64,000 nt of DNA from Craspedostauros australis (taxonomy: Eukaryota). Each line of letters begins with the position of its first letter. The first letter of the stretch is position 1. The DNA is taken from NCBI GenBank assembly GCA_030167865.1, contig JALAGF010004754.1, positions 1 to 64,000 of the forward strand, read 5' to 3'. Under the pieces are notes generated by a model. That model worked only from the letters and a program-made list of their open reading frames with translations. It was not told the DNA's origin and did not search any database. Shown piece after piece: positions 1,226-64,000 of the stretch. The position numbers and the translations under genes are program-made.

Positions 1226-1257
1226 GCATCATAGCTCGTCGTGTGTTGGTGTGATAG

Positions 1258-4580: not shown

Positions 4581-6026
4581 TCACAAAATGACGCAGGCAT
4601 CCTCAGTGGAGGGCGATTGGGTATTGCCGTCCGTGTCCATGCTCAGTTTGGCAATCCCCATACGAGCCGCCTTGACTTTGTCCTGCGCCAGCTGCATCGC
4701 TTCGTTCTCCCAGCTCACGGGATAGTCGCAGGCGAGGATACGGGAGGATTGGTCTTTGCGCAGCCTCCAGTACGACTGCTTCTGGCAGGATGCATTTTGG
4801 CATTCCCACGTCTTCGTTCCAAATTCATCCAACGACGGCTGGTGCCTGTACATGGGATACGCGATGGTCTGGATGCTGTGGCATTCCTTGCATTCGTACT
4901 CGAGCGCTGTCTTCTTGGTAAGAAAGCAGGCATCGCAGGTCGGCGGGTTCTTCTCGATGATGACGTCCTTGTCCATCTGGCAAAGCTCGCACCTGCCTGA
5001 GACGTCCAAGCAGGACAGCACAAGTTCCGTGTTGGGCGCATGCAGGGTGGTGACGGCGATCCACTTTGCGCAGTTGAGACACCGACCCAGCCTGGATGAA
5101 CCATCGGACGAGGCGGTTGTGAGGACCAGGACACAGGCCGTGCAGATCTGGAAGGGCGCATCTTCGCAACATGGGTAGCTGGCGATCGCGATCTTCCGTG
5201 GCGATCTGGATCCCGGCAGCTGCTGGCCCGCTTCATCCAGACAGATCATGCACTGTCGGTTGGCGCCTGGTTCACCAAAGTCATCCACCAGCGAGACGTC
5301 GTAGGCCAGGCCAACATCGTTCTCGGCGTCGACCAGGCTCTTTTGCCTCGGTTCGGACGGCACGACGCGGTCACCGGCCATCTCCGCGGACATGGTGGTG
5401 TCGGACGGCGTGACACCGCAGCCCGCCGTATCCGTGATGAGTATTTCGTCGGTCCCGCACAAGGCATCAAGGTCTATGACGAGATCGGGCAGCTGCGTCC
5501 CGAGCTTGGCCAAGGCCGACGCGTTCGTTATTTGCTGACGGACCATGGTGGCCTCGGCCTCGCTGAGACCGTGGGCAGCCGCGATCTGCCGTCTCTTGAT
5601 GGAGTCCTGCACCATGGCATCCTCGAACTGGTGCTGCATGCTGATGCCCTCGACGCATCCCACGCAGGAATCGATGGTCTCGAGCATCTCGTCGCAGTCG
5701 GGGCTGCCTGGTGCTGGACATTGCGAGAGCGCCGTGCTGTTTCTGGACTTGGAGGCAGGATCGGTATGGTTGTCTCCCACCAGCTGGTACATCATCATCG
5801 TTGTCGTTGATGCTGTCGTTGATGCTGTCTTTGTTGTTGTCTTTGTCGTCGGTTGGTTGCTTTGAGAAGGTGTTGTCGTTGTCGTCTCTGCTGCTATGGC
5901 TGCGGTTGCCATGGTAGGTGCCATTGCTGCTGATGCCTCGCCAGATTTTGAAGGCGATCGATTCGATGTCGAATCCTGTTCGCCGTTCTGGACAGCGGTT
6001 GTTGAGGTCTTCGCAGTCATTGCCAT
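4581..6026 (-). CDS. Cys-rich RING-like/zinc-ribbon protein with C-terminal CaaX (CVIL)
   Basis: 481-aa ORF with a T/A-rich disordered N-terminus. Cys pattern CMIC...CC...CTAC...CLNC, then CELC/CDAC/CKEC/CQNASC. Ends DACVIL*. Confidence 0.8.
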   Translation of the reverse strand: MAMTAKTSTTAVQNGEQDSTSNRSPSKSGEASAAMAPTMATAAIAAETTTTTPSQSNQPTTKTTTKTASTTASTTTMMMYQLVGDNHTDPASKSRNSTALSQCPAPGSPDCDEMLETIDSCVGCVEGISMQHQFEDAMVQDSIKRRQIAAAHGLSEAEATMVRQQITNASALAKLGTQLPDLVIDLDALCGTDEILITDTAGCGVTPSDTTMSAEMAGDRVVPSEPRQKSLVDAENDVGLAYDVSLVDDFGEPGANRQCMICLDEAGQQLPGSRSPRKIAIASYPCCEDAPFQICTACVLVLTTASSDGSSRLGRCLNCAKWIAVTTLHAPNTELVLSCLDVSGRCELCQMDKDVIIEKNPPTCDACFLTKKTALEYECKECHSIQTIAYPMYRHQPSLDEFGTKTWECQNASCQKQSYWRLRKDQSSRILACDYPVSWENEAMQLAQDKVKAARMGIAKLSMDTDGNTQSPSTEDACVIL

Positions 6027-7550
6027 TGAAGCAGATGTTCTGTCAAGAGATTCTGATGTTTGCGCTCTGGTTGATGCGAATCGAGCGAAATACTTCTTCG
6101 AGGAGTGGAGATCGTACTTATTCCCACCAATGCTGTTGCTGTTGCTGTTGATGTTGATGCTGATGCTGGTGGTGTCAAGCGAGAGAGAAAGATACTGCCA
6201 ATGTCAAATGTTGATGGTGATGGCGATGTCAACAGGGTGGGTTTCTCATCAGTGGCTTCGCCGTTCGCTGCGATGCTCTCACACGATCTGCTGCTCGTGT
6301 AGTTTTGAATCTGGGACGACTTGCCACTATGGCTTTTGCAATGCCCAAGGAGCACCGTTGTTGCTGCACCTTGTTGCTCCTCCTCCCTTGTGGTCGTTGC
6401 CCAAGTTCTGTCCGCATTTGCCAGTGTACGACTATTCACCACGTAGAATGCGGCCGCAGATACCAGCATCCCCATCTTTCTCTTCTCTTGGGGGTCTCGC
6501 CGCGCAGAAAACGAGAGCTGCGCATGGATTCTCATGTGGAAGACGAAGGGATGACCAATGATGTTCGTTGCAAATCAACGCAGAAATGCGTCTTGTTTCA
6601 CGTTTTCTCTTTGCGCACTTCGCGCTGGCACATCCAATAAACGTTATTTGACGTTGTATGGTACATCTCAACGGACGTCAAACATGTGGGATCCTCAACA
6701 AAAGCACCAAGCACGAATCATCACTCAAAGCGGCCATGTTAACGTCTGGACTAACGGTTGGCATTGCGCTTTCTTGAATGAAGGGCTATGTCAGTTCCAT
6801 CCAACAAATGAGTTGGGAAATCTTGGCGGAACCAACAACAACAACAACAACAACAACAACGGAGACCGCTCCGGGCAATGCGCAACACGGAAATGGGCAA
6901 ACACACCAACAAGGCCGACAACAACAGCGATTCTCGCTGCGGCACGAACACGGATACGACCAAGAAACCAAAGACGACGTCGCGCACGGTCGCGCCATCG
7001 GCCACAGCGCGCAAAGCACAAGAGGCACAAAGTACAAGGCTCCAGGCACACAGCTACTCTGAAGCAAAGGGACGACACTGTCCTCTCGAGCCATTGCAAT
7101 CGTCTTCCCTTTCGCCCCTTCCTCGCAAGGACTCGTAACACGAGAGGCCGAATCAAGAGAGCAAGCAGAGCGCGCGAACACGGATACGACTTCCAACACA
7201 CAGCCACTCCGCTCCACGTGATTCACACAAAAGAGACGCGATCGTGGATTGGTGGTCGTGCTAAGATCTGCGCGGCTCAACCCAACTCGATTCTGGTGGA
7301 CAAGTCCTCACAAACCAGATTCGCATTCAATCAAGCACTCGGATCCGCCCACCAGCTGGTTGCTTCGTTGGTCCATTGATTCATTGAACGGCTCTAGATC
7401 ATCTCCGTCATTGCCTCCTGGTAACCGCAGCTTCGTTATTCTCGACGAATCGTCCGGGATAGTCCACGTTCCGAGTTCTTGCTTGCAGAGAAGCAATAGT
7501 ATCAGCAGCAACATCAGCAGCAACAGTATCAGCAGAAGCATAACCGTACC

Positions 7551-10500
7551 ATGGTGCTCGTGACCCCATCCCCAGACGGCGGGGAAGTGACGCCCGACGG
7601 TACGAAGAAGAAGAAGCTCACATCTCTCGAGAAGACCGACGGTCGCCGGTTGGTGGAATACCTCGTCGTGGTCTCATCCATCGCCAACGAGACGACGGGC
7701 GACGATGCCTCACCCAAGAACGATGGCGGAGAATGGAACCTCTCCACAAGCTTCGACGATGAGGACATCATCGTGGAGCACGATTTCAAGCCAAAGATCA
7801 CGGCCCGCTACCCGGTCACCGACCATGATGACAACCCTCTGCATGAGAACGTCACTTTCTTCTGCCATCCGTCGGGATCCGTTCAGCTCAAGAAGGAAAA
7901 TCACATGCCGAAGGTACGAACGCATGACAATCAAGCACGACAATCAACGGTCCTCTTCTTCTTTTCTTCTTCTTTCTGCATACACCTTCATTCATTTTGT
8001 AGCATGTGCCATCTTCATGTGATATGTTGTGTCGTGTACATACCATCCATTCCCATTCACTCCGATGTCCACTCACTCATTAATCATCAATTGTGCTCAT
8101 TCATTCAATCCATCACATCCAATACATCACGCGATGTTTCATCCCCACCAAACCAAACTAATCCAAATCCCCCACATACGCACCCCCACGCGCACACGCA
8201 TTCAAACCGCAGATCCATTACTTTGTGGCGACAGGAGGGACCGGTCGTCGCATGTACGGAACATGCCTCACGCTGTGGGAACCCTACAAGGTGCAGGGAA
8301 AGAAGAAGGGAGACGAGGTGGAGGCCGAGCATGACGTCTTCCTGCCCAAATGCGTCGTCCTCCTCTCCATCTACCCTTACCTTGCTGCCTTCCGCGAGTA
8401 CCTAACGCAGCTCAATCGCATGTCCAAGATGGGCGAAATGACGCTGCCCATGGAACGCTACATCACCAACTTCTGCTCAGAGATTCCAGCACCGCCGCCA
8501 GGTTCCTTCGAGGTTCAGTGCACCATTCTGGATTCCATCATCAAGATCTGGTCGCCACCGCACAACCAGCCGATCCCATGGGTCAGCCTGCCCTTCAGCC
8601 ACCTCTTCGAATGCCTCGATGTCGACAACATCGTCCTCGTCTGGCATTGCCTCGTGCTCGAAAGGCAGGTGCTCCTCACCTCCACCCAGCTTTCAGTCCT
8701 CACCACGTGCTCAGAAATCTTTCTCTCCATGCTCTTCCCCATGAGATGGAGCCACGCCTACATCCCGCTGGTGCCGAACTTCCTCATCCCCATCCTCTCC
8801 GCCCCCATGCCCTTCCTCTGCGGAATCAACAAGGCCAACCTCGCGGAGGCGCTCTACGACCTCAGCAGGGAGTGCGTCGTCGTCGATCTGGACAAGAATC
8901 TCGTCACTCTGGGACCAGACACAGCTCCTCTGCCACCGCTACCACCGCACCAGGAGGCCTGCCTCAGGTCGCAGCTCAACGACAACGTCGGGATGATCTT
9001 TCGCGAAGCCCGATCGCTCACCAAGAACGATGACTACTCCGACAGCGGCACGAGGTTGCCGACGCACATCAAGCAGATGGCGGAGGCCATGTGGGAGGCA
9101 CGTCTCTCACTCTTCGACGAGGCATTCCATCTCATGTTCACGCCCGAGGAGGCACGCAAGAATCTCCTCAACGGCAACGACAAATCCGGCATGGACTTTG
9201 GCGATCGTGATATCAACGACCCGCTCCGCGTCATGGGACAGCGTGAGAAGCAGTCCTTGCGGAAGCAATCGGAATGGGACGCGGTCCAGGAGGCCTTCCT
9301 GGACACCTTCGTCTACCTCCTGCGCAACTACAGAAAGCACCTCGTCTTCCCGTCCAAGCACAACGAAGGATCGTACGGTGGCGCGGGATTCCATTCCAAG
9401 GAGTTCATCGAATCGCAACGTTACGACATGCGAGAATTCTTGGAGCAATTCATCGGGACCCAGATGTTCGACAACTTCATCACGAAGCGCCTTTACGGCA
9501 GCGGCGAATCGGACGTTGCCTTCTTCGACATGGCGGTCGACAGATTCCTCAAGAATGCCGGCATCCTTTCCAACGTCGACATCGGCGGCCGGTTGTGGCA
9601 AGCCAGCGGAATCAAAGTAGATGTCATGCGCGGTGGAAATGTGGCGCAGAAGAAGCCACCGACCGTTTCTGTCACACCCAAGTCGGAGCCCCTGCTGCAA
9701 AGTGCCCGCGTGCATCGCAAACTGAAGACGATCGTCCCACCAGAGCCAAGCATGGAGAATCTCCCACCGATCGATGAGATGGACGGCGTCAGCACTGTCC
9801 AGGAGAAGGACACTGTGCCCGACGACGTCAGCGTGGGATCTGCAAGCACATCGTCCAGAAGCCAAGTCAACAACGCCTACCGCAGCGTCCAGGACAAGGC
9901 TGCCGAGATCTTGGGCAAGTCGCGACTCCGCTTCGTCTACGACAACTTCCCGTCCGAATTCAAGGACGATCTGTTCGGGGTCCCTCGTCCGTTGTCTTCC
10001 GCTGTCATTGCCGAGTTCGACCGGCAGAAGAAAGATGCCGCCCAGTTCCGCCGGAAGAAGCCAGCTCGTCAGCCGAACGACAAGAGGAAGCACATTCAAC
10101 GAGCGCATGCTGCGCTGGACCCGGTACGTCGCGTTGTGTTGTGTTGTGTTTTGTTTTGTTGTGTTGCATTGCTTTCATGTGTTAGTTGTACTCGTACTTA
10201 TGCTTTGACTTGCACTTATACTTGCACATGTTTGTAGAGTATTGAGAATGTGCGTGTCCTCTTGTTCCATCAATCAAATATGCAAATTCTCGTCGATGCT
10301 CACATTATGATTGCCGTACTACTCGATCATGTGTGTACTCGACACTGGTTTGTATTCCTCTCTCATTCCACACCCTTTGACTAAATCAATCGCAAAACCA
10401 CGGATCACCGAAATGCATGACTATGCGTACTTTCGTCATTTTTGAACTCGCAACTGTACTCGCAGGAAACACCACCCTCGCCAGAAGTCGCCACCTTCAC

Positions 10501-46080: not shown

Positions 46081-46800
46081 TTATGTTGTCTTGCAAAATA
46101 TGTCCAGGTAACCCCACTCCGTTGATGGGCACAAGTAGATGGCCTTGACGAAGAACATTACCAGAATGCCACCTGTGATGTGCCAACCGCAGTGTGCGTT
46201 CTGCCATGCCTTGAGATCACGCTTCGATTTCGCAGCATCCCCCGCAGCGAAGAAGGACAGCGGAAGGATGGCCAGCAATACCGTCCACCATTGCAAACGC
46301 GTGTACGACCGAACGACGGTGACGATCAGCATCGTCACGGCAGAAATCCGGTCCAACCCATGCACGATGTGAGGCCGATCTGCGCACACGTAGTCCGCCA
46401 TGATTGAGAGGAAGGCCTGCGTCACCCAGGCGGCGGTCTCGATAGGATTCGGACTCGTGAACATCGGAAGAGCGTACAGAATCCCGGACAATCCAGAACG
46501 CACTGCTCGGCATTGCGCCCCTTCCCACGGCAAACCGTTGTGGAAGAATATCTTGTACACCAGTATCGAATCCACAACCCCGAAAGCGCCGCAGTCGTAT
46601 TGCATCCGGCTACCATCGGCGCTTCTCGAATCATCATCGCCGGTGAACGAAGTAGAATCGCTGAGGGAGGTCGTCATCTTCCTCATGAGAGGCATTTTGC
46701 TGTTGTCATCCTTGGCCGTGGGCTCCATCTTTGATGGCGCTGTTTGGCTCTTATGTTCGCTGCGATCGGCTTGCGATGTCGCTCTCTTCTTCATCGTCAT
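46081..46800 (-). CDS. Small multipass membrane protein, CREST-like motifs
   Basis: About 5-6 TMs with SIMADY, HGLDR and HCGWH motifs. Start uncertain (open frame extends to 47169). Confidence 0.65.
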   Translation of the reverse strand: MTMKKRATSQADRSEHKSQTAPSKMEPTAKDDNSKMPLMRKMTTSLSDSTSFTGDDDSRSADGSRMQYDCGAFGVVDSILVYKIFFHNGLPWEGAQCRAVRSGLSGILYALPMFTSPNPIETAAWVTQAFLSIMADYVCADRPHIVHGLDRISAVTMLIVTVVRSYTRLQWWTVLLAILPLSFFAAGDAAKSKRDLKAWQNAHCGWHITGGILVMFFVKAIYLCPSTEWGYLDIFCKTT

Positions 46801-47788
46801 CTTTCCCTCTGAGTGTTGCGAGACAGTCGTTCTGTGCCTTCCTTCGTTCTGCGCGACGACAATGAGCGATGATACTCTGGAGCAATGATTAACTTCTGTT
46901 GCTTCCTGATGGATTTGTGCGTGGTCACGGCAATATGAGCGGTCAATATCCAAAAGACAGCGACGCAAGTAGGGAAGTTGGCAATGGTGGTGAATGAATT
47001 GCAAGAGCAGGTGCGTCTTGTGATGGTTCATCACATCGGCCTTGCGTGTTCGAAAGTGTGACGTTGTCATTGTTGTGCCACTCGCACACGAAACCAAGCA
47101 CGCCAATACTATTTGGATCGTTTCAATCTGTGGGTTATTGTCGAACGCAAATGTTCGTAATGGTTGCACCGGGAAACGTTCGTATAGCGTATATTTACGT
47201 ATTTACCGCAACCCCACAAAAAGGAAAATGACCAACTGCCGCTTCAATTCACACACAAACAGTCACTCCCGAAACATCGTCAAACGGGAGAAGCTAGAAT
47301 TCCCAGCCTCCTACCCTGATCGGCAGCCATGTACAGAGGAGGATGGCATCGGGTCCGAATGCGGCCTCACCATGCTACAATGAAGTAATCTTGATCCAAT
47401 CATCGATAGAGCTTCAGAGTATTCGTCGAGTAAGTTGCATGGTAACATGGTAACATAGTAGCGGAGTAGCGGAGTAACATGATGGCATCACCACATCGCA
47501 CAAGGCAACAACACCGGATTTGACTGTTTGTGAATCATTGTGATTCGACAACACGAGAGAGGGGAAGCTGGCCAAACTGACGTGGCGCAAATCTACTCAC
47601 ACAAAACAAACCAGCCGTTCCTCCAAATGCAATCCAACAACGCCGCAAAACTGCATACAATCATGCCATACCGTACCATGCCATACCATGCTATACTCGT
47701 GCCAATGAAAACTGTGACAATGAGTGCAGTCTCGCATTGCGGTTCACTCACACTTTGCCACTGCGATGATGTACTGCTGGATTTGGTA

Positions 47789-47803
47789 TGGCATCGCATA
47801 ACA
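47789..47803 (+). repeat. 5' copy of the 15-bp target-site duplication
   Basis: TGGCATCGCATAACA, identical to 56161-56175. Confidence 0.93.
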
Positions 47804-47931
47804 CAATACCAGAACCCGAAAAAACGAAACACACGATAACACTAGAAAAACACAAAAACGAAACACATCAACAAAGATCAGTACTCAAACTACAGCGAAT
47901 TCTACGTAACTCGAAAGATACCAACCTGACC

Positions 47932-50376
47932 ATGAAGGCAACCAAACATGTTCGAATCGCAGATGACAAAGCCGACGACGTTGAGATGATGGATGAGCAA
48001 GGACTAGCTGTGCAAACAGCAGCTCCGAAGCCACCTCCCAAGCCAAATCCGAGAGCAATCGAAGAAGAGGCGATGGAGAAACGGGGAGAAATAGCGACGG
48101 AGTGGAAAGATCCGAACACCGCGCGCTGGAAGAAGCTTCATGACACGATCATCCAACAAGCCAAAGCCTTTCAGCCAGAAGAGATGTACGGAGAAGAGGA
48201 CAGAGCCCTGCACAACCAGACAAAGAAGACCTTAGTCATGAAAGCGAGGTGGGAGAAGGGCGACACGTCAATGGTTTCGGCGCACATGCCCACAATCAGC
48301 GAGATGACAGCCTTTTTCCAGACGGTGATGGATGGGCGCACAACCAAGCTGGGGAAAACAAAAGTGAATTCGGACGATCCTGCGCGAGTTGCCATCAAAC
48401 AACTTGTGACAGATTTGTCTCTCACCAACCCAATCCGATGCTTCACAGATGCGCTCAAGCCAGGCAACAAGACAATGGCGGCCAACCAGATGACTGTACT
48501 ATGGGCAGCAGCAACAAACTACATGGGCTGCCAGTACATGGAAGAGCAAGCACCACCAGAAGTCGACTCTGACAACGAGAAGATGAAAGTGGACAGCGAC
48601 GACGAAAGCTACGATCTGGAGGCACTCATGACAAAGAAACCCCTCAAACAAGCTAATCTGACAGCGTACACAACGGCAACGAAGATCACATCTCCAGCTC
48701 CACGCGACGCGGCCGGCAAACTCAAAGCGGCAAGAGCCCCAACAGAAAAAGAGCGACAAGCAGGCAACGACGAAGAAGCCAACGAAGGATGGACACTCCT
48801 ACAAAAGAAGGACAAACAACAGATGTCCAATCCTAGGCGACGCTACTACGAGCGTTTTGAGATGAGATTGAAGATCCCAAAAGGTTCGAAAACACCGGTT
48901 CGAGATTTCCAGGAAAGGTTCCGACTGTGGTACGAAGAGGCTTCGAGCATGGACAAAAGCTTGATCATCAGTCCTTGGTACAAGAAGAACAAGGCCAAAG
49001 GCTGCATTGTCACAGCAGATGATATACCAGCGGCATGGAAGGATCTGAGATACTTTGTCGGGAAAGCCAACCCAACATCCAAGAGCGAAGACGTGTACCT
49101 TCAAGTGCTCCTGTCATCAAACATGGACATGCAAATGTTCACCAGTTGGAACACGGAGCTGGAGGGAGCATATGGCGAGGGTGAGTACTCATACATCCAA
49201 GACCTGAAAGACGCGGAGCATACCACAGAGATCGGGTTCATGGCGTACTCCGGGAACTTCACCAAGGCAAAGCAAGCCCTGTCAATCATCAACCAGTTGT
49301 TGGAAGGCAAGAGAGCGAAACTCAAAGTCGGTGGCCGGGTGAAATACATGGGGAAGGTGTCAGAGGAAGTGAAGGAGCAGCATCTGCAGCTCGGTGGAAG
49401 CTGGTACAACGCTCCGTGGATGGCCCTACATCTTCATGCAGACGTCAAAGACGCCCGCAGGGCCTCCAAACTGCTCGGCAAAATCTTCAACACCAAGGAA
49501 GGAGACAGAGGTGGACTCAATTACCGGTACGTTCCAAAACCCGGAACATCAGTGATGGGGGCGAAGACGGCCGCGAAGGTGCAGGCAATGACAAGGAAAC
49601 ACCAAAGCTACGTCCGCCGGCTCAAGTACGAGCAGCTCAAAGGCGACTTCGCGCTTGATGTCAAAGATCCGGAGACCCAAACCATCACGCTTCGAGAATT
49701 CCTCTCCAAACAAACCATCGACGGGTGCCCGATGATTCATGACGTCAGCACAACACACATGTCAGACGGCAAGGAAGACGCAATCCACATCGTTGCATTT
49801 GAGGAAAGATACGCGCAGGCGGTTGGTCTAATCCATACCATCGGGATCCGATGCTCCTCTGAGATCAACGAATCCACCACCAAATGGTTCTCCGAAGATA
49901 TTGTCGCCATGAGCAGCAACATGATCAAGGACAACAACGGCGAATACGTGGACGTTGAGACAGAAGAAGAGATGGACTTTCTCTTAGACGAAGATTTTGG
50001 AAACGTCATCATTGAGGGCATCAACATCATGGAAAGCGACAACGAGGCACCGAAACGCAAGAAGGCACGATTGGAAGATGAAAGCTTCAAGACCTTTGGA
50101 ACGGAGTACGGAAAGTCGGTGGCATCGTCCAGGTACACAATCCCTGAGTCACAAACAGCAATAGACGAAAGAGAAGCGATTGACGCGGAGCTTGAAGAAG
50201 CAATGCGAATGGCGAGAGAAGCTCAAGAACTGGAGGCAAGCCGTGTTCGAGTGCAAGAACAGAAGAGCACCATAGCTAGCCAAGAAACAATCATCGCGGC
50301 ACTGCGCGCCCAGCTAGAGGCGTCCGGCGCCCCGCTACCTGCCTCAAGCAAGGGTGGGAGTGAGGGCCAAGAATAA
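47932..50376 (+). CDS. LINE ORF1 protein (814 aa), no recognisable domain, C-terminal coiled coil
   Basis: First ATG inside the element and an uninterrupted ORF. Heptad-like EAIDAELEEAMRMAREAQELE...IIAALRAQLE. Confidence 0.85.
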   Translation: MKATKHVRIADDKADDVEMMDEQGLAVQTAAPKPPPKPNPRAIEEEAMEKRGEIATEWKDPNTARWKKLHDTIIQQAKAFQPEEMYGEEDRALHNQTKKTLVMKARWEKGDTSMVSAHMPTISEMTAFFQTVMDGRTTKLGKTKVNSDDPARVAIKQLVTDLSLTNPIRCFTDALKPGNKTMAANQMTVLWAAATNYMGCQYMEEQAPPEVDSDNEKMKVDSDDESYDLEALMTKKPLKQANLTAYTTATKITSPAPRDAAGKLKAARAPTEKERQAGNDEEANEGWTLLQKKDKQQMSNPRRRYYERFEMRLKIPKGSKTPVRDFQERFRLWYEEASSMDKSLIISPWYKKNKAKGCIVTADDIPAAWKDLRYFVGKANPTSKSEDVYLQVLLSSNMDMQMFTSWNTELEGAYGEGEYSYIQDLKDAEHTTEIGFMAYSGNFTKAKQALSIINQLLEGKRAKLKVGGRVKYMGKVSEEVKEQHLQLGGSWYNAPWMALHLHADVKDARRASKLLGKIFNTKEGDRGGLNYRYVPKPGTSVMGAKTAAKVQAMTRKHQSYVRRLKYEQLKGDFALDVKDPETQTITLREFLSKQTIDGCPMIHDVSTTHMSDGKEDAIHIVAFEERYAQAVGLIHTIGIRCSSEINESTTKWFSEDIVAMSSNMIKDNNGEYVDVETEEEMDFLLDEDFGNVIIEGINIMESDNEAPKRKKARLEDESFKTFGTEYGKSVASSRYTIPESQTAIDEREAIDAELEEAMRMAREAQELEASRVRVQEQKSTIASQETIIAALRAQLEASGAPLPASSKGGSEGQE

Positions 50377-53300
50377 GGCAAGGCTGGGGGCAGGCGAAGC
50401 ATCGTCGACCACCCCCGCAAGCCAAACGGATGCAACCCTGGAGGAAAGGCGCCAGGAAGGGCCAGACCTCCTCGACCGGCACTGGGGAGATTCTACGCGC
50501 ACCAAGGGCGGCACCTTATTACGCATTGCTGCCCTGAACGTGGGATGTCTACAGACCGGCTCGAACCACTGGAAGAACGACGATCTCTGGCAATGGGTCA
50601 AGCGGCTACAATTCGACGTTATCCTCCTATCGGAGATAGGAATCAACTGGTCGAAGATCGGCCGAATGAACTCATGGAAGACGAGATCCAAGAAACACGT
50701 GCACATGGAAAGACACTCCTTGTCGTACAATGAGAGAGAGAAGATGGGAGGGCCAAGACAATGGGGGGGAACCGCATGCTCTATGGTGGGGAATGTCACA
50801 GGCAGATACAAAAGCAGGGACAATGACCCGGAAAAGATGGGACGATGGGCAAGCATGGCGGTGAGAGGACGGCAAGATACAACGATTCGGTTTGTGAGCA
50901 TCTATATTCCAAACAAGGGAGGACAAAGCGCCGGGACAGTCTACAATCAACAAGCATCGTGGCTGGAGTCACAAGGCAACAGTACATCACCCATCGCACA
51001 GCTGATCCAAGATCTGGAAGCATCCATGCAACAGTGGAGAGATGCAGGCGAGACAGTGATAGTCGGAGGCGACATTAACATGCCAGTGGGACGATCCCAA
51101 ATGGCGGATATGATGGCGCGCCAACGAATGAAGGAGGCAATCCTCAGTCACCATCCCACAGCTCCAGGCCTTTCAACCAACATACGAGCCAACTCGGACA
51201 GAGTCATCGACGGCATATGGGTTCCAGAGTCGCTTCAAGTGGTGCGGTCAGGATACAGCCAATTCGGACCTTGGGATCATCGAACAGCGTGGATAGAGAT
51301 TGCACAAGAGTCAGTGTTCGGAACGGTCAGCAAGCCTACGCAAAAATTCGAAGGGCGACGGGTCCGTCTCAACCGGCCAGTGACAGTCCGAAGATATCAA
51401 GCTGAAGTCCTGAAGCAATACAAACGCAAGGACGTAATTCAGCGGGTTGATCAGCTGCGAGCCGAGGTGGGAAAGTCAGAACAGCTCACGAAAGATCAGA
51501 GGGAAGAAATGGAAGCCATCGACGCAGACAGAACACGAATCATGTTAAGCGCGGAAAAAGGGGCCCGGAAAATATACACAGGCAAGGTTCCATTCTCTCC
51601 AATCATAAAGCAAAAAGCCATGGAGAAGCAGTTCTGGAACCTCGCATGGAAACGGCGGGAAGGAAAAAAGGTGAGCTCTCGATGGTATGAACGAGCCAAG
51701 AAACAAGCAGGGATAACGATCCGCACTGCCATCCTCAGCAAGGAGGACCTGGACGAGAAGCGACGAAGGGCACATAAGAAGTGGAAGCTCGCTAAGAAGG
51801 ACGCGCAGAAGCACCGGGCGACGTTCCTGCAGTCACGGGCAGAAGAAGTGGCCCGAGAAGGAAACATCACTGCGGAAGCAGCTCTCACGTCCATCCAAAA
51901 GAGAGAAGAAGTGGTGGAGACGTTCAAGGCCATCAGGCAAGTGATCGGGGACTACGATGCAAACAGCAAAGTAACATTGGTTATCGCGAACAATGAGGAA
52001 GGGGAAGAAGAGGTGTACGACAAAGAACAGACTGTCATCGCTCAATGTATGAAAGTCAACGAGGCTAAGTACAGACAAGCATATGTGACTCCCCTACAGC
52101 ACGCGGCTTTTGCGAGAGATGTGCGAAGGATGAGTTTGCCAGCCACCCGACGACGGCATCGCGGCAAGCTCGGTGTCTACGACCAGCAGCTGCTCGATGA
52201 GCTCAGCAAGACGGATGTCATACCATGGAAAGAGGAAGATCTCAACATCACCACGGTCAGTCATCAACAGCTGTGGTCCAAAGCACGCGAAAAGACCACG
52301 TCGGGCCCATCAGGACTACATTTCGGTCTCTGGAAGGCAAATGCAAAATGTGATGACCTGGCTAAGGTGGACGCGACCATGAGAGAGATATCGCTTCGGA
52401 CGGGTTATAATCTGTCCAGATGGCTGGTGTGTACCGATGTGACGCTTCTGAAGGAGCCAGGAAACTTCCGAGTTTCCAGATTCCGCACCATCAGCCTCGT
52501 AGAAGGAGATTTCAACGCTAACCTCAAATGGATCGGAAAGATCATGATGAGACACGCAGAGGATCACCGGATGCTGCCAGATGAACAATACGGGAGCAGA
52601 AAACAACGAAGCGCAGCAGAAGTCAGTCTCAACAACAGAATGACAGACGACATCATCAGAATCACAGCGGCCACAAGCTGTATATGCTCGAACGACGCCA
52701 AGAGCTGTTATGACCGGATGGCGCATGTGCCGCTGGAGCTCAGCATGAGAAGAATCGGGGTGCCCACAACGGTGGGGCGAAGCGTGACGACCGCTATCCA
52801 AGCGATGAAGCACCATGTGCTGACAGGTTTTGGAAAATCCACGCGCACATACCCTCATCGCGGCTCCAAGTTACAAGGCCTGCTCCAAGGTCTCGGCATA
52901 TCGCCGGCTGGGTGGGTGGCGATGAGCTCGCCAATCATGGCTGCAATGTCTGAGAGAGGGTACGGATTCACGTCGGTTAGTCCAACGCAGAAAGTGACAA
53001 CCAAGCTGGTGTGCTTCTCGTTCGTGGACGACACGGACCTCATTCACTCCGTCAGGGCAGAAGCAAGCGACCTGGAAGGCTGTATCGCGGAAATTCAGCA
53101 GGTGGTCGACGCGTGGGAGGGCATGCTACGGGCAACGGGCGGGGCATTGGAACCGCGGAAAAGCTACTGGTACTTGATGTCGTTCAAGTGGGAAGGCACT
53201 CGGTGGAGATACAAGACTATCGAGGAACAGCCAGGGGACATCAGTATCCGTCAGCCGGATAGCCAGGAGCGGTCCACGCTTCTCAGGCTTCGGGTGGACC

Positions 53301-56023
53301 AAGCTCGAAAAGCTTTGGGGGTCATGGTGCGCCACGATGGGAACCAGAAAGACAATGAGCTGTACTACACGACTAAGGCCGAGAAATGGGCAGACAAAAT
53401 GCGACGAGGACGAATGCTGAGGACCCATGCATGGATAGCAATGAAGTCCACAATATGGAAAGCTCTGGAATACCCATTATCCAGCTCGACATTCACAAAG
53501 GCAGCGGCTGAGAGAATCATGCGTCCCGTCCTAACGGCAGCACTGCCAGCAGCTGGGATCCAGCGAAACGTATCCAGGAAGTTGGTGTTCGGACCGCACG
53601 AAGGGATGGGGCTTGGCGTGCACCACCTCTACTATGTGCAAGTCACGAGACATCTCGAGCAGCTGGCAAGACACTGGCAACAGCCAACACTGACAGGGAA
53701 ATTAATGCGCACGCAGATCGAACTTCTGACGCTGCAAGTGGGCATCCCAGACGTATTCTGCCGCGACCCGGCGAAATGGAGTCATCTGGCTGACGATTCG
53801 TGGATGAAATCGGTGTGGATAGAGGCACGCGAGGTGGGCATCACAGTGCAGTGGGAGAATGGGATACTGCACGCCCCTCGACAAAACGACGCGCCAATCA
53901 TGGAGCGCGTCCAAGCCTTCGCGTTTGATCCGCAGCAGCAGCGAGTCATCAACCTATGCAGAATAGCCCAGAAAGTGTTCTGGCTATCGGATATTGTCTC
54001 TGCCGACGGGGCTCAACTTCTCCCGTCCGTACTGAGTCCAGGGGGGATCCCTCTGCGGTCCACATGCCTCCGCTGGCCACCAGTTGGGGATCTCGGGCCA
54101 CAGTGTTGGCGGCTGTGGAGTCAAGCCATTCGACAAATATTCCAAGCCTCCAGAACAGGTTCAGCGCGTCTGGCGCAGCCTCTCGGGCATTGGAAGGGGT
54201 TCACATCGCAGCAACCGCTAGTCTTCTGGGATTCTGACAGTGACAGACTCTACGATCTGCAGCAACCAAGTCAATGCTACATCAGAGTGCCGAGGCGCGG
54301 GAGACGAAGGCTGTACGAGTTGGCTAACGACAGCATGCGTCGGCCGTCGGAAATGGTGGACGGGTATCGCGAGCGGGGCAGGATCGTTGTCACGGGAACG
54401 GGTGATGGCGGCATTGCACAGCCAGAAAGCGCCAGTACAGTGGAAGCAGCAATACTAGCCCTGCCACACTCGAGAGCATGGGCGGTGCAGCAATACGAGA
54501 AATCGGGAACCTGGGAAACAGTGGCCCAGTCTGTGCGACAGGGGTCGGCGGTGGCCTGCAGCGACGGGTCAGTTGCGCAAGGAGCGGGCGCGTCTGGGGC
54601 AGTGATACTCGCCAATTACGGCGGCAGTACCGCGCAGGTATTGATCGCTAATCTTGCGCCAGCCACCGACGGTACTATGCAGTCGCACCGAGCGGAGCTC
54701 GCTGGGATCTACGGGGTTCTGACGATGCTCGCGGTGATCTGTGAAGTGCATGGGATTGACGACGGCAGCGTGGAGGTGGGGTGCGACAACATCGGCGCCC
54801 TCAAGGCACTGGACCCAGAGTGGCGGCTGTCTCCCTCGTCCACCGACGCAGATTTGCTACGAGCAGCACGAAGTCTCAGCATGGAAATCCCAATCTCAAT
54901 TCGAGGGCGGCACGTCAAAGGCCACCAGGATGATCAGATGGGATGGAGTTCGCTTGATAAGTGGGCACGAATGAATGTGATTGCCGACAAAGTTGCAGGA
55001 TCCGCAAGAGTTTACATGCGGGAGGCGGCGGCGTACGGCGGGCAAGTGCATGGCGAGCGAGTGACGTTCAACGCATCGACAAAGATGACGAAAGTGGTCT
55101 ATTCCGCGGTGGCGGGTGCCCAAACACGCCGGGCAGCGATTGACGTACTGATCTCGCGCCAGGTGCTCCATCACAGCCTACCTGTTGCCTGGCATACCGT
55201 CGGCAGCGCTCTCGCCGTACTCGAACTTTCCAAGCGCACGTTGACGGTCAAGTTGGTTACAGGGGAAGCTCCATTTGGCAAACGAATGAAACGATGGGGG
55301 ATGCGGATCTCCGACAAATGCCCCAGCTGTGGTGCACGTGAGGACGTCCAGCACTTCTGGGAATGTCCTGGACATGACCGTCGGCGGATTTCGAAGAAGC
55401 ACCTAGCGGAGATTCGAAGATGGCTGCAGAAGTACCCAACACGGCCAGCGCTGGTAGCCAGCATGATGACCGTCCTCCGGAGTCAGCTTGAAGGTTCGGC
55501 GTTTCTACAGATCACCAGCCCAGGCAGCCAGCTACACGAAGCTGTTCGGCAGCAGCAAGCCGTGGGGCCCCAAGCATTGCGGAAAGGGCTGCTGGTCCAA
55601 CACTGGGAGCATATTCAGCAAGAGTACCTGGAGCAACAGCGCTCCCGCAGGTCCGCGGCGAAGTTGTCCCGGCAGCTTGTGCGACGCATTTGGCAAATAG
55701 CGTGGGAGCATTGGGCAGCGAGAAACGAAGCACTTTTTGAGAATCAAAACTCGGCCGAAGCTGAAATGGTACAAGCTCTGCGCGACAGGGCACAATCACT
55801 TCAGCTTCGCCTCGAGATGAATCCAGCAGACCACAGGCGAATACTGCTCAGTGCCCCCTCTGTGGGGACGCCAGTAGCGCAAGTCGCGGTATGGGTGGAG
55901 CAGGCTGCACTAAAGCTACAAGAACCGGCCGCCTCTGGCGTCCTGTTCACGTGGTTGCGGTTCAGGCGGCAAGCTCACCCTACCCCCGGCGATGGCGCAG
56001 GCGCATACGCAGTGGGCGAGTAA
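50354..56023 (+). CDS. LINE ORF2: AP endonuclease, reverse transcriptase, RNase H, C-terminal zinc finger
   Basis: APE: LRIAALNVG, DVILLSE, VGGDIN, IDGIW, WDH. RT: FRTISLVE, EQYGSR, NDAKSCYD, GLLQGLGISP, FVDD. RNase H: CSDGS, RAELAG, CDN, HVKGH, NVIAD. Zinc finger: CPSC...HFWEC. Confidence 0.95.
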   Translation: MGVRAKNKARLGAGEASSTTPASQTDATLEERRQEGPDLLDRHWGDSTRTKGGTLLRIAALNVGCLQTGSNHWKNDDLWQWVKRLQFDVILLSEIGINWSKIGRMNSWKTRSKKHVHMERHSLSYNEREKMGGPRQWGGTACSMVGNVTGRYKSRDNDPEKMGRWASMAVRGRQDTTIRFVSIYIPNKGGQSAGTVYNQQASWLESQGNSTSPIAQLIQDLEASMQQWRDAGETVIVGGDINMPVGRSQMADMMARQRMKEAILSHHPTAPGLSTNIRANSDRVIDGIWVPESLQVVRSGYSQFGPWDHRTAWIEIAQESVFGTVSKPTQKFEGRRVRLNRPVTVRRYQAEVLKQYKRKDVIQRVDQLRAEVGKSEQLTKDQREEMEAIDADRTRIMLSAEKGARKIYTGKVPFSPIIKQKAMEKQFWNLAWKRREGKKVSSRWYERAKKQAGITIRTAILSKEDLDEKRRRAHKKWKLAKKDAQKHRATFLQSRAEEVAREGNITAEAALTSIQKREEVVETFKAIRQVIGDYDANSKVTLVIANNEEGEEEVYDKEQTVIAQCMKVNEAKYRQAYVTPLQHAAFARDVRRMSLPATRRRHRGKLGVYDQQLLDELSKTDVIPWKEEDLNITTVSHQQLWSKAREKTTSGPSGLHFGLWKANAKCDDLAKVDATMREISLRTGYNLSRWLVCTDVTLLKEPGNFRVSRFRTISLVEGDFNANLKWIGKIMMRHAEDHRMLPDEQYGSRKQRSAAEVSLNNRMTDDIIRITAATSCICSNDAKSCYDRMAHVPLELSMRRIGVPTTVGRSVTTAIQAMKHHVLTGFGKSTRTYPHRGSKLQGLLQGLGISPAGWVAMSSPIMAAMSERGYGFTSVSPTQKVTTKLVCFSFVDDTDLIHSVRAEASDLEGCIAEIQQVVDAWEGMLRATGGALEPRKSYWYLMSFKWEGTRWRYKTIEEQPGDISIRQPDSQERSTLLRLRVDQARKALGVMVRHDGNQKDNELYYTTKAEKWADKMRRGRMLRTHAWIAMKSTIWKALEYPLSSSTFTKAAAERIMRPVLTAALPAAGIQRNVSRKLVFGPHEGMGLGVHHLYYVQVTRHLEQLARHWQQPTLTGKLMRTQIELLTLQVGIPDVFCRDPAKWSHLADDSWMKSVWIEAREVGITVQWENGILHAPRQNDAPIMERVQAFAFDPQQQRVINLCRIAQKVFWLSDIVSADGAQLLPSVLSPGGIPLRSTCLRWPPVGDLGPQCWRLWSQAIRQIFQASRTGSARLAQPLGHWKGFTSQQPLVFWDSDSDRLYDLQQPSQCYIRVPRRGRRRLYELANDSMRRPSEMVDGYRERGRIVVTGTGDGGIAQPESASTVEAAILALPHSRAWAVQQYEKSGTWETVAQSVRQGSAVACSDGSVAQGAGASGAVILANYGGSTAQVLIANLAPATDGTMQSHRAELAGIYGVLTMLAVICEVHGIDDGSVEVGCDNIGALKALDPEWRLSPSSTDADLLRAARSLSMEIPISIRGRHVKGHQDDQMGWSSLDKWARMNVIADKVAGSARVYMREAAAYGGQVHGERVTFNASTKMTKVVYSAVAGAQTRRAAIDVLISRQVLHHSLPVAWHTVGSALAVLELSKRTLTVKLVTGEAPFGKRMKRWGMRISDKCPSCGAREDVQHFWECPGHDRRRISKKHLAEIRRWLQKYPTRPALVASMMTVLRSQLEGSAFLQITSPGSQLHEAVRQQQAVGPQALRKGLLVQHWEHIQQEYLEQQRSRRSAAKLSRQLVRRIWQIAWEHWAARNEALFENQNSAEAEMVQALRDRAQSLQLRLEMNPADHRRILLSAPSVGTPVAQVAVWVEQAALKLQEPAASGVLFTWLRFRRQAHPTPGDGAGAYAVGE

Positions 56024-56160
56024 GGCATACACACTACATGAGAAACGATACATGGATTCCGTGCTCCCTTCGCGCCATGCGCGAAGATTAAAGGAGGCGG
56101 AGAAAAGCGCCACCGGCGCAGCCTCATAAGAGGGTTTAATCCTTGAGTTATTTATTTATT

Positions 56161-56175
56161 TGGCATCGCATAACA
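56161..56175 (+). repeat. 3' copy of the 15-bp target-site duplication
   Basis: Directly follows the (TTTA)n tail. Confidence 0.93.
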
Positions 56176-56316
56176 TTGCATGGTTTCACACCACCATCCC
56201 ATCCTCCTCCCATCATCTCATAAAATCAAAGCAACAACAACACACAACCAAACAACACACAACCAAACAACCAAACAACAACACTCTCACCACCCAATAA
56301 CCCAACAACATCAATC

Positions 56317-57387
56317 ATGAAGTTCACTATCAACACCATCGTCGCCACCGCCCTTCTCATGGCATCCACCATGCCAACACCAGCCTTCGCCAAGGAAGGA
56401 AGTCTCCGAAAGGGATCCAACGGTGCCGTTCCCACCGACGCCAACGCCAACGCCGAAATCATCAACAATCCACAACGAAGCCGATCCCTGCTCCTCAGAT
56501 CCCTCCCCCAGCAAACCTACGTCGCTGCCGACTCCCAGATCGCCTTCATGGGCGGACCAGATGCCACCTCCGCTCTGGGATCCTCGATCATCATCACAGG
56601 CAACATGATCGACAGTGACGAAGCGACGCTGACCGATCCTGCAGCCAGCACTCCAACCGGTACCGTGTACGGGACGTCTTCCCAGGTGTGTATCACCACT
56701 GCAACTGGAGCCGTCCCTGCTACCGACATCGCCGCCCATCAATGCACCATCACAGACGAGTTCTTCGCATCTGACGGATCGTCTCTTGGATCCGTCATCA
56801 TGCAGGCTGGCGGAAAGTACGACTTCACGCCAGGCGTCGGCGGGGAGCTGCCTCCATCCTTCGAAGCGGCCGTGATCGGCGGAACCGGACTGTTCGATGA
56901 TGTGACGGGCAGCGTGCTCGTCGAGACCATGCGCGAACGCACCGGAACCTTCCCAACCAACCTCTCTGGCTTCATCGTCCTGCGTCACAACTACGACAAC
57001 ATGCAGTACAACTACGACAGTGGCAACAACGCCAACACCGGATTGATGTACGGACCATGCGAGATCACCTTCAAGGACGAGGCAGCTTTGCGTGCGGGCA
57101 GTACTGGCAACAAGATCGAGATGAAGCTCGCTTTCGATGCGGACGAAGCCGAGCTGGACTTCTCCAACTCTGGCATTCCAATGACCCAGTTGAGTCTCAC
57201 GGGCGGCAAGTTCAACTTCGTGGCACGCACGGGCGGCAACAGCATGCGGATCAAGAAGAAGAACAGCGTGATGGACTCCGCCACCTTGACCAACAGCAAG
57301 AACTTCATCATGCAGAGCGTGCCGCAGATGCAGGGAGACGTGCCAACCTTCCAGCTTCCTACATGCAGGGCCGTGTACAAGGCTTGA
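56317..57387 (+). CDS. Secreted protein with dirigent / allene-oxide-cyclase-like beta-barrel plus a second domain
   Basis: Signal peptide MKFTINTIVATALLMASTMPTPAFA and RxL motifs. VYGTSSQVCIT...HQCTI...GSVIMQAG...AAVIGGTGLFDDVTGSV fits the dirigent/AOC signature. Confidence 0.75.
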   Translation: MKFTINTIVATALLMASTMPTPAFAKEGSLRKGSNGAVPTDANANAEIINNPQRSRSLLLRSLPQQTYVAADSQIAFMGGPDATSALGSSIIITGNMIDSDEATLTDPAASTPTGTVYGTSSQVCITTATGAVPATDIAAHQCTITDEFFASDGSSLGSVIMQAGGKYDFTPGVGGELPPSFEAAVIGGTGLFDDVTGSVLVETMRERTGTFPTNLSGFIVLRHNYDNMQYNYDSGNNANTGLMYGPCEITFKDEAALRAGSTGNKIEMKLAFDADEAELDFSNSGIPMTQLSLTGGKFNFVARTGGNSMRIKKKNSVMDSATLTNSKNFIMQSVPQMQGDVPTFQLPTCRAVYKA

Positions 57388-57863
57388 GCATGAGTACGAA
57401 TCATGAGCACGGACATGGATATCGGCACATACTGGCGGGTCAGTCAGAGGAATGCACATAGCATACAGCACATACAGCACATACATGGCTTAAAACGAAT
57501 ACAACCCACAACAAACGTATTCTACTATACTACTATAAATCACTTACTCTACATCGAAGGATTGACGCTCCACCATATTACGCTGATGAGCAAGTACGAG
57601 TACGAGTACGAGTTGGTACAAGATCTCATCGAAACGGACGACATGTGTGTTGATGTTCCGGACATGATCGATTCGGAAGACGGGAGGATCCCCGAAGTGC
57701 CGATACCCTTTTTGCCAAACTTCAACACCAAATCCATTCATGGCGTCTCTGGATGAGAACGCGCAGATGAGAAATTCGCATCATCGCCACAAACGGCACA
57801 AAGATCCTCGATCGTTGATGGATCACAACCACCATCGTCGGAAAAAGGACAAGGGCGACAGCA

Positions 57864-61316: not shown

Positions 61317-64000
61317 ATGGGAATCAACGGCCTTCACAAGGCGCTGGGCTTTGCCACCAAGAAATCCAACATCGCGAGCTTTGCCGGCAAGACGGTGGCC
61401 ATCGACACATCGTCATGGCTTCACAAGAGCGTGTACAGCGTGGCGTCGCGATACGTGGAGAGCATGGAGAGGAAGACCAACGACCCGCAAAGTGTCCAGG
61501 CTTCGGTGCGGTACATCGCGTTGCGTTGCACGGAGCTGCTGGGACCATTCGGCATCGCCAAGATATTCCTCGTCATGGACGGCGAGCGCTGTCCGCTCAA
61601 GGCTGACACCAACCAAGACCGTGAGCTCAGGCGCATGGAGAACCTGCGGATCGCAAGGGAATGCCTGCGGGTTGGACAGCGACAAAAGGCCGAGGACAAG
61701 TACCGCTCCTGCATTAAAATACGAGATCAGTTCACCAATGCCGTCCTCGCGCTCGTGGCCAAGCAGTTCGCGAAGGATGGTCGTGTGCAACTGGTGTGGT
61801 CTCCCTACGAGGCGGATGCTCAGCTGGCCAAACTTTGCGTTGATGGTGTCGCGGATGCTGTCATTACGGAGGTGAGTATCACTGCCATCACAATCAATCT
61901 TGCCATCGGCATAAGCAATGGCACCGCCTCGGTGTCCTGTTTTCCTCCCAATCTCAAACATCGCGCGCTTCTCCACATCTTCTTCCGCCTCTATCAAACT
62001 CTTCCTACTTTCAGGATTCTGACGTGCTGCTGTACTCGGCCACGTCGCATGTGCCGTTTCCACTGCTGTTCAAGTTGGATCGATCGACAGGTTGTTGCGA
62101 CGAAGTCTCCATGAGCTGGTTGTTGAATCCTTCCTCCTTCTTGCAGTCATCGTCACCGTCGGCAAACGCAATTGCAACGAAGACGGGGAAACGCGGCGCA
62201 AAGAAAGGCCAGCCATCCGCCATGGAGCTGGTGTTCCGCACATTTGCACAGCGCCAACTGCGCAAACCTGGGTTCGGCGTGAGACTATTCGTCCAGGCAT
62301 GCGTTCTGGCCGGCTGCGATTACGCAATCAACGAGCTCAGCGGCGTCGGGCTCGTCAATGCCTTCAAGGCCGTGCGCGACAATGCCCATCGCACGAACGA
62401 AACGCGATTCCAAAAGGTGCTGGCCACCTTATCCAGAAGAGCCACGATGGGAATCGATCTCAAGGCCTACGAATCGCAGCTGTCCAAGAGCGAGGCAGTC
62501 TTTTACTTCCACGTCGTGCGTGGTATGGGTGGCGGAACATGCACGTTTCTCGAACTGCCAGACCAAGACCGGAGCATTGTTGGTAGTAACGAACTGGATG
62601 GGCGTGAAGCACCATGCGCACAGTACCCATGCCTGGAGAGATACGGCAGCGACGTTTCATTCTTCGGCACGCCACGGACTCCCAACGCCACAAAAAAGGT
62701 CGTCGATGAGGGTCTTGGCGATGTAAACGACAGACAACGGATCCACACGCCCCCGGCAAAGCACGACCCACAGCCGGACGCGCTTGCTGGCAGCATGGGC
62801 CCGCCATGTGTGCCCTCCGATCTTCGCCAAGCACTCGAGAAGTTCGCACGACCAAAGACGCACCCGTACACATCGCCGCTGACGGTATCAACATCTTCGT
62901 CGACAGCGACACGGCCGTCATCAACGTCGTCAATATTCTCGTCGTACTCCGCATCGTCTTCGTTGTCGGTATCATCAGGGTCACGCCGGTCTACTCCAGA
63001 GATATCAGCGGTGCGATCTGCGCGACGCCACTCTTCAATATCTTCGTCTCCATCTTCATTTACGGGGGAGAAAACTATTTCACACACATCGTCATCTTTG
63101 ATCCGCAACCCATACAAGCAACTCAGTCATCAATCCGAAGAGCGGCAAGTACCGCAGCACGAAGGCCCGGGACAAACCCAAACCATGAACCCATTCTCGA
63201 AGTCACAGCGCGGCCAAACGCCTCAAAAGAAGGCTCGCAGCAGCACAAGCTCCTCGATTCAGAAGTTTTTCAGCCCTGCGAGTACCGAGACGAGTATCAG
63301 CACCAACGCTGAAACAGGTGCGAAGCGGCACTTCGGCACAACATCGGCGCTACGAAGCAGAAGAGACTCAAGACAATCATACACGACGAGGACGACGAAT
63401 GGAAGTCTCTTTTCACTCGTCCAACAGAGGTGCAACCCAGCGAGCTTGACGACTCCTGCATCGGATGAGAATAGGCGCAATGGTGAATGTTTCATCCCAT
63501 CCGTCACTCCGGAGAGTGATGACAATCCAGCCTCGTCGTCACTGTCGTTATCGTCATCATCCTCTTCTTCTTCATCTTTGATCCACGAAAGTTCAGAGAA
63601 ATCAGCAGCAGCTCTGTCGTCGGCGCCATCGTTATCGCCGATGGCAACGTTCGACTACGGACCAAACAACCATCAGCATGCTCTGCGTAGCATCATCAAT
63701 CTCAACGAGCCACCGACACCTCCAAGCCTCATCGACAAGGATCGGTCTCTTGGACAACGAGGGAGAAGTGAAGTTATCGATGTCATTGATGTTGATGCCG
63801 AGAACGACCCCGACGTTACCATGGCAATGAAGGGTAGTCAAGACCAGAGCCAAGCAACGATGATTTGCTCCGAATCGCAACAAGGGAGCTCCTCGCTGTT
63901 CTTCGACACGAACCAATCGGATTCTCGGATGTCTGTCGAAAGCATCTGCTCCAACTATTCGAACACGATCGATCTCACCCAATCATCGACTCCTGAGCAA
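61317..64000 (+). CDS. EXO1: Exonuclease 1 (XPG/Rad2 family), 3'-partial; exons 61317-61871 and 62015-beyond window
   Basis: MGINGL, VAIDTSSWLHK, VMDG and SPYEADAQLA motifs. Splicing restores ITEDSDVL, followed by CVLAGCDY and GVGL, then a long disordered tail. Confidence 0.9.

Follow-up and report, generated by a model that had tools for sequence, protein, structure and literature searches.

The 64,000-nucleotide stretch of Craspedostauros australis DNA analysed here (GenBank assembly GCA_030167865.1, contig JALAGF010004754.1, positions 1 to 64,000 of the forward strand; hereafter the window) carries an 8,357-bp insert (47804-56160) between the two copies of a short duplication. The insert is organised as a long interspersed nuclear element (LINE): two long open reading frames (ORFs) are preceded by a short leader and followed by a structured 3' untranslated region (UTR), and a target-site duplication (TSD) frames the whole. 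ORF2, the second frame, encodes in order an apurinic/apyrimidinic (AP) endonuclease, a reverse transcriptase (RT), an RNase H, a CCHC zinc knuckle and a helical C-terminal domain. We hold, with a probability of roughly three in four, that the insert is a full-length and structurally intact LINE of the AP-endonuclease (APE) type that inserted recently into a short intergenic region of a diatom and represents a new family. Its features, in window positions, are:

47789-47803, plus strand: 5' TSD TGGCATCGCATAACA, an exact 15-mer present twice in the window
47804-47931, plus strand: 5' UTR, 128 bp, A-rich, delimited from the sequence
47932-50376, plus strand: ORF1, ATG at 47932 and TAA at 50374-50376, 814 codons plus stop
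50318-50376, plus strand: overlap of the ORF1 and ORF2 frames, 59 nt, ORF2 in the +1 frame, no ORF2-frame ATG
50318-56023, plus strand: ORF2 frame, 1,901 codons stop to stop, first ATG at 50666
50537-51307, plus strand: AP-type (EEP) endonuclease, ORF2 residues ~74-330, Pfam Exo_endo_phos
52475-53173, plus strand: RT core, ORF2 residues 720-952, Pfam RVT_1
54545-55012, plus strand: RNase H, ORF2 residues ~1410-1565, with D1416, E1460, D1490, H1536 and D1557
55319-55366, plus strand: CCHC zinc knuckle CX2CX7HX3C, with C1668, C1671, H1679 and C1683
55367-56020, plus strand: all-helical C-terminal domain, the last 218 residues after the CCHC knuckle
56024-56160, plus strand: 3' UTR, 137 nt, folded into stable hairpins, tail TTATTTATTTATT at its end (56148-56160)
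56161-56175, plus strand: 3' TSD TGGCATCGCATAACA, the second copy of the exact 15-mer

The ends of the insert are fixed by the duplication itself. The 64-kb window has two exact copies of TGGCATCGCATAACA and no more (47789-47803 and 56161-56175); the bases flanking the two copies differ, so that the duplication measures exactly 15 bp with no extension on either side, and a pair of this kind matched by chance in none of 100 dinucleotide-preserving shuffles of the window. A repeat scan of 47000-57000 returned it (repeat family D7) as the sole exact 15-mer pair framing the element and found neither long terminal repeats (LTRs) nor terminal inverted repeats. An earlier interpretation by a model given only the letters and their ORFs (the sequence-only reading) had claimed exact boundaries, a perfect 15-bp TSD and a short 128-bp 5' UTR, all of which are confirmed here. 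The insert is called a LINE because it combines an RVT_1 RT and an N-terminal AP endonuclease with this TSD, no terminal repeats and the 3' tail TTATTTATTTATT. It separates two divergent ORFs, at 46081-47070 (minus strand) and 56317-57387 (plus strand), whose intergenic gap measures about 870 bp, and is present once in the window, with no second copy or fragment; other transposons were not found in the 64 kb either.

The proposal of two uninterrupted ORFs of 814 and about 1890 codons holds, as ORF2 is open for 1,901 codons from stop to stop, about 1,882 of them past the ORF1 stop. When its N-terminal part is scanned alone, Exo_endo_phos matches residues 74-312 (E 2.7e-6, 27.8 bits against a cut-off of 24.5), and in family alignments D252, N254, D298, D320 and H321 are invariant while Y196, the N of LNVG and the E of LSEIG are conserved. 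The RT is recognised by RVT_1 (E 1.1e-8, 35.4 bits against a cut-off of 29.6) and shows the motifs NDAKSCYDR, QG..QG...SP, FVDD and GG.L...K; across 47 sequences (the window ORF2 and 46 relatives) D793, D904 and D905 are invariant or nearly so and motifs A-E are conserved. Pfam finds no RNase H in any of six proteins, the window ORF2 and five relatives, and the assignment of this domain therefore needed a structure model. The AlphaFold2 model of the region has a mean confidence (pLDDT) of 89.3, and Foldseek against the PDB returned type-1 RNases H for all 43 of the 43 matches listed (ranks 1-50), of archaeal, bacterial, human and retroviral origin, the best being RNase HI of S. tokodaii (3aly, target-normalised TM 0.74, E 5e-6). 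The D-E-D-H-D set is invariant in the 47 sequences, as are G1417, R1458, G1463, D1512 and N1553 within residues 1390-1700. That the element bears an RNase H, as the sequence-only reading had it, is thus borne out by the model, its PDB matches and the invariant residues; so is the presence of all catalytic motifs, since the alignments show every catalytic residue conserved in the family to be kept. A separate set of matches to TAL-effector repeats (phmmer against the PDB, E down to 1.5e-6), covering residues 1444-1512 (about 54647-54853), was rejected as compositional, with no significant stretch; the segment concerned falls within the RNase H domain.

The C-terminal end of ORF2 is of interest for the classification of the element. 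The four residues of the CCHC knuckle are invariant in the 47 sequences, and Pfam zf-RVT gives a weak match there, below its cut-off (E 0.001). The domain that follows is modelled with helices only (AlphaFold2, pLDDT 87.4), has no PDB fold match at E<=0.001 and shows no invariant D, E or K among the 47 sequences. Restriction-like endonucleases adopt an alpha/beta fold in which acidic and Lys residues are conserved. This matters because the order AP endonuclease, RT, RNase H, CCHC is also that given for Dualen in an excerpt of PMC5029228, where Dualen/RandI elements are dual-endonuclease LINEs of green algae and cryptophytes with a very long ORF. The shared order through the CCHC knuckle, the giant ORF and the protist host would all suit an element of this kind with two endonucleases. 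The 218 residues after the knuckle are, however, all-helical (pLDDT 87) with no match in the PDB and no conserved D, E or K, and the element has two ORFs where Dualen has one. Lacking the PD-(D/E)xK endonuclease fold in its C-terminal domain, the element was excluded from Dualen/RandI, a membership that we regard as extremely improbable.

ORF2 has many relatives, none of which bears a clade name. A word-indexed search returned five full-length ORF2 relatives with 22-27% identity, and end-to-end alignment with relatives of similar length gave 22-37%. An exhaustive HMMER search of 1.84 billion representatives with ORF2 residues 640-1700 as the query yielded 9,524 matches at E<=1e-3, 4,102 at E<=1e-10 and 913 representative clusters at E<=1e-30. 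Among the 150 relatives listed none exceeds 41% identity, the best full-length matches lie at 36-37%, and the alignment spans most of the query wherever the relative is long enough; they are mostly 1,800-1,950 residues long and their RT starts near residue 630, as in the window ORF2. The ESM Atlas holds clusters of 50-129 members, 1,900-1,950 residues long, with the endonuclease and RT families. These environmental relatives (P0008-P0156 among the proteins, L001-L010 among genomic loci) thus share with the element a colinear ORF2 of ~1,800-1,950 residues and all of its domains at 22-41% identity; they differ in that their ORF1 regions are unrelated in sequence and that ORF2 is led by an ATG in some of them. 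Because no listed relative passes 41%, the element counts as a new family in these collections; its kind is known, and it lies within a large and essentially unannotated clade. In this sense the suggestion of a possibly new family is supported; with 913 clusters around it, the family is not isolated.

The genomic loci come from a scan of GTDB genomes, in which ten (L001-L010) were found on contigs of metagenome-assembled genomes (MAGs) labelled as bacterial or archaeal: Methanotrichaceae, Acidimicrobiales, Nitrospirae, Chitinophagales and others. Some of these contigs are long (266 kb for L003, 215 kb for L005), and at L004, where the ORF2 frame is intact over 1,903 codons, the LINE adjoins a leucine-rich repeat (LRR) gene frame, a feature of eukaryotic style. 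All ten look like eukaryotic contigs that were mis-binned into prokaryotic MAGs. The L005 contig also carries two degraded copies of the family arranged tail to tail, at 55-3977 (plus strand) and 4579-8776 (minus strand).

ORF1 is an orphan. Its product (92 kDa, pI 5.7) is acidic overall and has five Cys but no CCHC knuckle; a basic core (residues ~300-560) is followed by an acidic stretch (650-700) and by a Glu/Ala/Gln-rich C-terminus (~740-797), which we read as probably helical. No Pfam family matched at E<=0.01, none of 7,996 candidates scored in the word-indexed search reached E<=1e-3, the ESM Atlas gave no usable match and phmmer found nothing in the PDB; one weak PHROGs match (E 0.0035) was disregarded. 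Against the ten related loci, tblastn returned a single borderline match for residues 296-474, at L005 (E 8e-4, 20% identity over 183 residues), on the same strand as and upstream of a degraded ORF2, that of the minus-strand copy. The upstream ORFs of intact relatives (at L004, 709-3510 and 3288-5006) have no blastp similarity to ORF1 or to each other, and no upstream ORF of the relatives contains a Pfam family. Since these upstream ORFs share nothing detectable with ORF1 or among themselves, ORF1 is hypervariable in this LINE group. Its position suggests that the protein could act as an RNA-binding chaperone.

Whether the copy is as intact as it looks is where our interpretation has to be weighed. 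The alignment of the 46 relatives has 85 columns with a conservation of at least 90%; inserted into it with mafft --add, the window ORF2 matches 76 of them. The catalytic residues are all kept, and at least three of the nine misses, those of the L-G-W block at 1290, come from the add step as artefacts, since the same residues align in other alignments. The open frames themselves constrain age: 4.3-4.6% of single substitutions would create a stop in the two frames, so that 358 stop-creating substitutions are expected per unit divergence and the probability of seeing none is 0.03 at 1% divergence, which bounds the divergence d below 0.84% at P=0.05. An insertion as recent as this, at less than ~0.8% neutral divergence, is thus plausible from the sequence, provided that the interior is a true single-copy sequence, as the estimate presumes. 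Of the young, full-length and intact copy that the sequence-only reading proposed, completeness is supported by boundaries, frames and domains, and youth is plausible within that bound. The lack of evident CpG decay is real (observed/expected ratio 0.93) but is no evidence of youth: the flanks stand at 0.99-1.06, and since the host genome is not CpG-depleted the ratio is uninformative on age. In composition, the element ORFs have a GC content at third codon positions of 0.61-0.62, near the low end of the host genes (0.50-0.75), and the AT skew of the 5' half (+0.35 to +0.37, against -0.21 to +0.29 outside the element) reflects an A-rich sense strand, typical of LINEs.

Several observations weigh against this interpretation. 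No homologue that could support a function of ORF1 was found in Pfam, the word-indexed search, the Atlas or the PDB. The RT is so divergent that sequence searches of the PDB found no RT, and even at E<=10 the 47-sequence profile detects none of the solved ones there, L1 ORF2p and R2 included. TSD identity bounds age weakly, the probability that the two copies are still identical being 0.46 at 5% divergence. The window ORF2 ranks sixth lowest of the 47 sequences for conserved columns kept, and one real miss, N859L, falls in RT motif B. The start of ORF2 is a further concern: the first ATG of the frame is codon 117 (50666), already inside the endonuclease domain, and four of the six relatives with their start in view carry an early one, at most seven codons from the upstream stop. 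In the other two, L003 (open for 1,910 codons) and L002, an ATG is lacking until codon 85 or 90; the AUG-less ORF2 of the window copy is hence a minority state in the family and not unique to it. At L004 the junction is unlike that of the window: the upstream ORF, ending at 5006, shares part of its stop with the ORF2 ATG (5003) in an ATGA-type stop-start overlap (4997-5006). No special fold was found at the ORF1/ORF2 junction of the window (z = -0.42).

The state of the ORF2 start and the low rank for conserved columns, with the early ATG of the four relatives, would fit a copy that only looks intact: the start codon of ORF2 might have been lost, or one 1-bp indel in the 59-nt overlap might have broken up an earlier arrangement. 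In both cases no ORF2p could be produced, and this would be a recent but inert insertion derived from another master. We regard this as unlikely. The two relatives that also lack an early ATG indicate that this state may be normal in part of the family, and the ORF2 proteins of relatives begin at about the same place as the window frame, which points to an ancestral two-ORF layout. AUG-independent translation of ORF2 is, moreover, known for human L1. Open frames and TSD fit a recent insertion equally well for a live and for a dead-on-arrival copy; judged by its sequence, the copy may be retrotransposition-competent. The active master copy envisaged in the sequence-only reading is a possibility at most, with one copy in 64 kb, no ATG upstream in ORF2 and N gaps in the assembly.

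A different concern is the assembly. A single copy is visible, and this within one 64-kb window, and the window contains runs of N at 300-370, 641-772, 1065-1072 and 1590 (71, 132, 8 and 1 nt), typical of scaffolded drafts. A short-read assembler could have collapsed diverged copies into a consensus, and the 8.4-kb interior may then look intact, with falsely open frames between unique flanks. This we consider quite improbable: the element and its vicinity are free of Ns, an exact TSD marks where the flanks join, and the 64 kb contain no second copy or fragment.

The noncoding ends are short. The 128-bp leader presumably serves as an internal promoter, and a 14-nt exact direct repeat inside it, AAAAACGAAACACA (D11, at 47820-47833 and 47854-47867, spaced by 34 nt), may be a promoter element. 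No Rfam family matches 47000-57000 at E<=1, so that there is no ribozyme of the hepatitis delta virus type. At L004 the first upstream ORF begins at most 133 bp after the neighbouring LRR gene frame, and for this reason the leader of such elements seems to be naturally short. The 3' UTR folds better than expected (z = -3.02; none of 200 shuffles folds as well); in it three tight hairpins can be drawn, one with a perfect 8-bp stem formed by CUUCGCGC and GCGCGAAG. The element ends in TTATTTATTTATT, a tail of the (TTAT)n type without poly(A). A (TTTC)n run in the 3' UTR of L004 may likewise be a tail of 4-nt repeats; no convincing TSD was found for that relative.

From LINEs generally, a cycle can be proposed. 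A bicistronic RNA would be transcribed from the internal promoter in the 128-bp leader and bound by both ORF1p, the orphan protein, and ORF2p. Translation of the latter would do without its own AUG: ribosomes could reinitiate, start at a non-AUG codon or shift by +1, either within the 59-nt overlap or shortly downstream of it. Its RT would recognise the folded 3' UTR together with the (TTAT)n tail, in place of poly(A), while the AP endonuclease would place its bottom-strand nick at the left margin of the 15-mer that is duplicated. Target-primed reverse transcription could then start from the nick, and the element's own RNase H could remove the RNA template. Cutting of the top strand 15 bp downstream would finally yield the 15-bp duplication that is seen.

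How the element relates to described LINE clades is judged here from its architecture, the RT being too divergent for its family profile to detect any solved RT. By architecture, the element most resembles LINEs of the I group. The likeness comprises: (i) two ORFs, with ORF2 ordered as AP endonuclease, RT and RNase H; (ii) a canonical D-E-D-H-D set with its His kept; and (iii) a TSD and a short simple-repeat tail without poly(A), as in the I factor, which ends in TAA repeats. The differences are substantial: at ~1,900 residues ORF2 is about 50% longer than the roughly 1,000-1,300 of that group, long conserved regions separate endonuclease from RT and RT from RNase H, a CCHC knuckle and a helical domain follow the RNase H, and ORF1 lacks CCHC knuckles.

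The APE-type clades reported with an RNase H, in the part of PMC4640811 that lists them, are I, Tad1, Loa, R1, Ingi, Nimb and Outcast. The same part attributes to plant L1 and to oomycete Utopia an 'archaeal-like' RNase H in which Arg replaces the His; since the element keeps the His, its RNase H is not of this type. With the L1 group (including the plant and oomycete L1 that have an RNase H) the element has in common the two-ORF layout, the N-terminal position of the AP endonuclease, a CCHC with a weak match to zf-RVT and extensive non-catalytic stretches on either side of the RT; it differs in its (TTAT)n tail, with no poly(A), and in that the RNase H precedes the CCHC. Membership of L1 was set aside on the sequence evidence, as poly(A) is missing and human L1 ORF2p, like other L1 ORF2p chains of the PDB, escapes the 47-sequence profile at E<=10. 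A deeper relationship to L1 may be compatible with this search result. RTE-like elements likewise occur in a diatom host, combine AP endonuclease and RT and have a microsatellite-like tail; they are, however, short, with a single ORF of ~1,000 residues and no RNase H. They were the only non-LTR type in a 2009 survey of two diatom genomes, as far as the portion of PMC2806351 dealing with these elements goes.

The sequence-only reading had compared the element to the Ambal clade, a comparison for which the analysis provides no support beyond the existence of 'LINE/Ambal' as a RepeatMasker class in one diatom genome (excerpt of PMC12803021). The label 'CRE-Ambal' groups Ambal with CRE (excerpt of PMC11572971), and CRE is listed among the clades with a restriction-like endonuclease in the part of PMC4640811 cited above; the element has an N-terminal AP endonuclease instead. 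Nor does Ambal appear in PMC4640811 among the clades with an RNase H. The comparison is therefore unsupported, judged indirectly by such labels and clade lists from parts of the two papers (PMC11572971, PMC4640811), and we hold membership of Ambal to be very improbable. For Ambal, RTETP, Proto1 and diatom LINEs, the literature searched gave clade lists and labels only, with no architecture.

A bolder and more tentative possibility is that the family and the hundreds of environmental relatives around it, all unannotated, make up a distinct, deep and unnamed clade of APE-type LINEs of which the window copy is a live master element. Such a clade would be marked by an ORF2 of ~1,900 residues that combines endonuclease, RT, canonical RNase H and CCHC with a helical domain of novel type, by an orphan ORF1 that is hypervariable, and by a microsatellite tail after a 3' stem-loop. 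We think this unlikely, and prefer the more limited reading of a recent, intact LINE of a new family.

That the host is a diatom, as supposed, is borne out by one flanking gene, which encodes a RING/DUF2921 protein of 1,221 residues with 189 relatives. In the best 120 of these, all 13 that carry an organism name are diatoms, aligned over their full length at 39-44% identity (Seminavis, Nitzschia, Cylindrotheca, Fragilaria, Pseudo-nitzschia, Fistulifera, Thalassiosira, Cyclotella and others); the lineage was confirmed for one of the 13. Other genes of the window (HSF, PPR, PAP-fibrillin, DENN, EamA and BCNT) fit a photosynthetic stramenopile. An exact look-up of eight window proteins gave no match in the protein collection, from which the species thus seems to be absent. 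Next to the element, the ATG of the ORF at 56317-57387 (plus strand) lies 141-156 bp downstream of its 3' end, and the promoter of that gene may be affected by the LINE insertion. This ORF has a signal-peptide-like N-terminus (MKFT...PAFAKEG) and overlaps almost entirely, on the opposite strand, with one at 56311-57486 (minus strand); they encode 356 and 391 residues, respectively, and neither contains a Pfam family. Near the end of the window, XPG-N and XPG-I domains end at an ORF boundary (61317-62114), and a second ORF (62111-64000) starts 4 nt earlier in another frame; the two are probably one XPG gene split by an intron or a frameshift.

In the diatom literature searched, mobile DNA is described almost wholly as Copia-type LTR elements, and the part of the 2018 Phaeodactylum re-annotation that bears on transposons (PMC5859163) lists no autonomous LINE. 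Should the element fall into a clade that Repbase already contains, it would be a routine item of annotation. A complete and possibly mobile RNase H LINE would provide diatom research with a second class of endogenous mutagen, a candidate tool for insertional tagging and a way into a large clade now known as unlabelled metagenome proteins only. Since members of this clade sit on contigs binned to bacterial and archaeal MAGs, the clade is a practical marker of eukaryotic contamination. Should the window copy prove to be the live master element of an unnamed deep clade, it would be the first candidate active LINE in a diatom.

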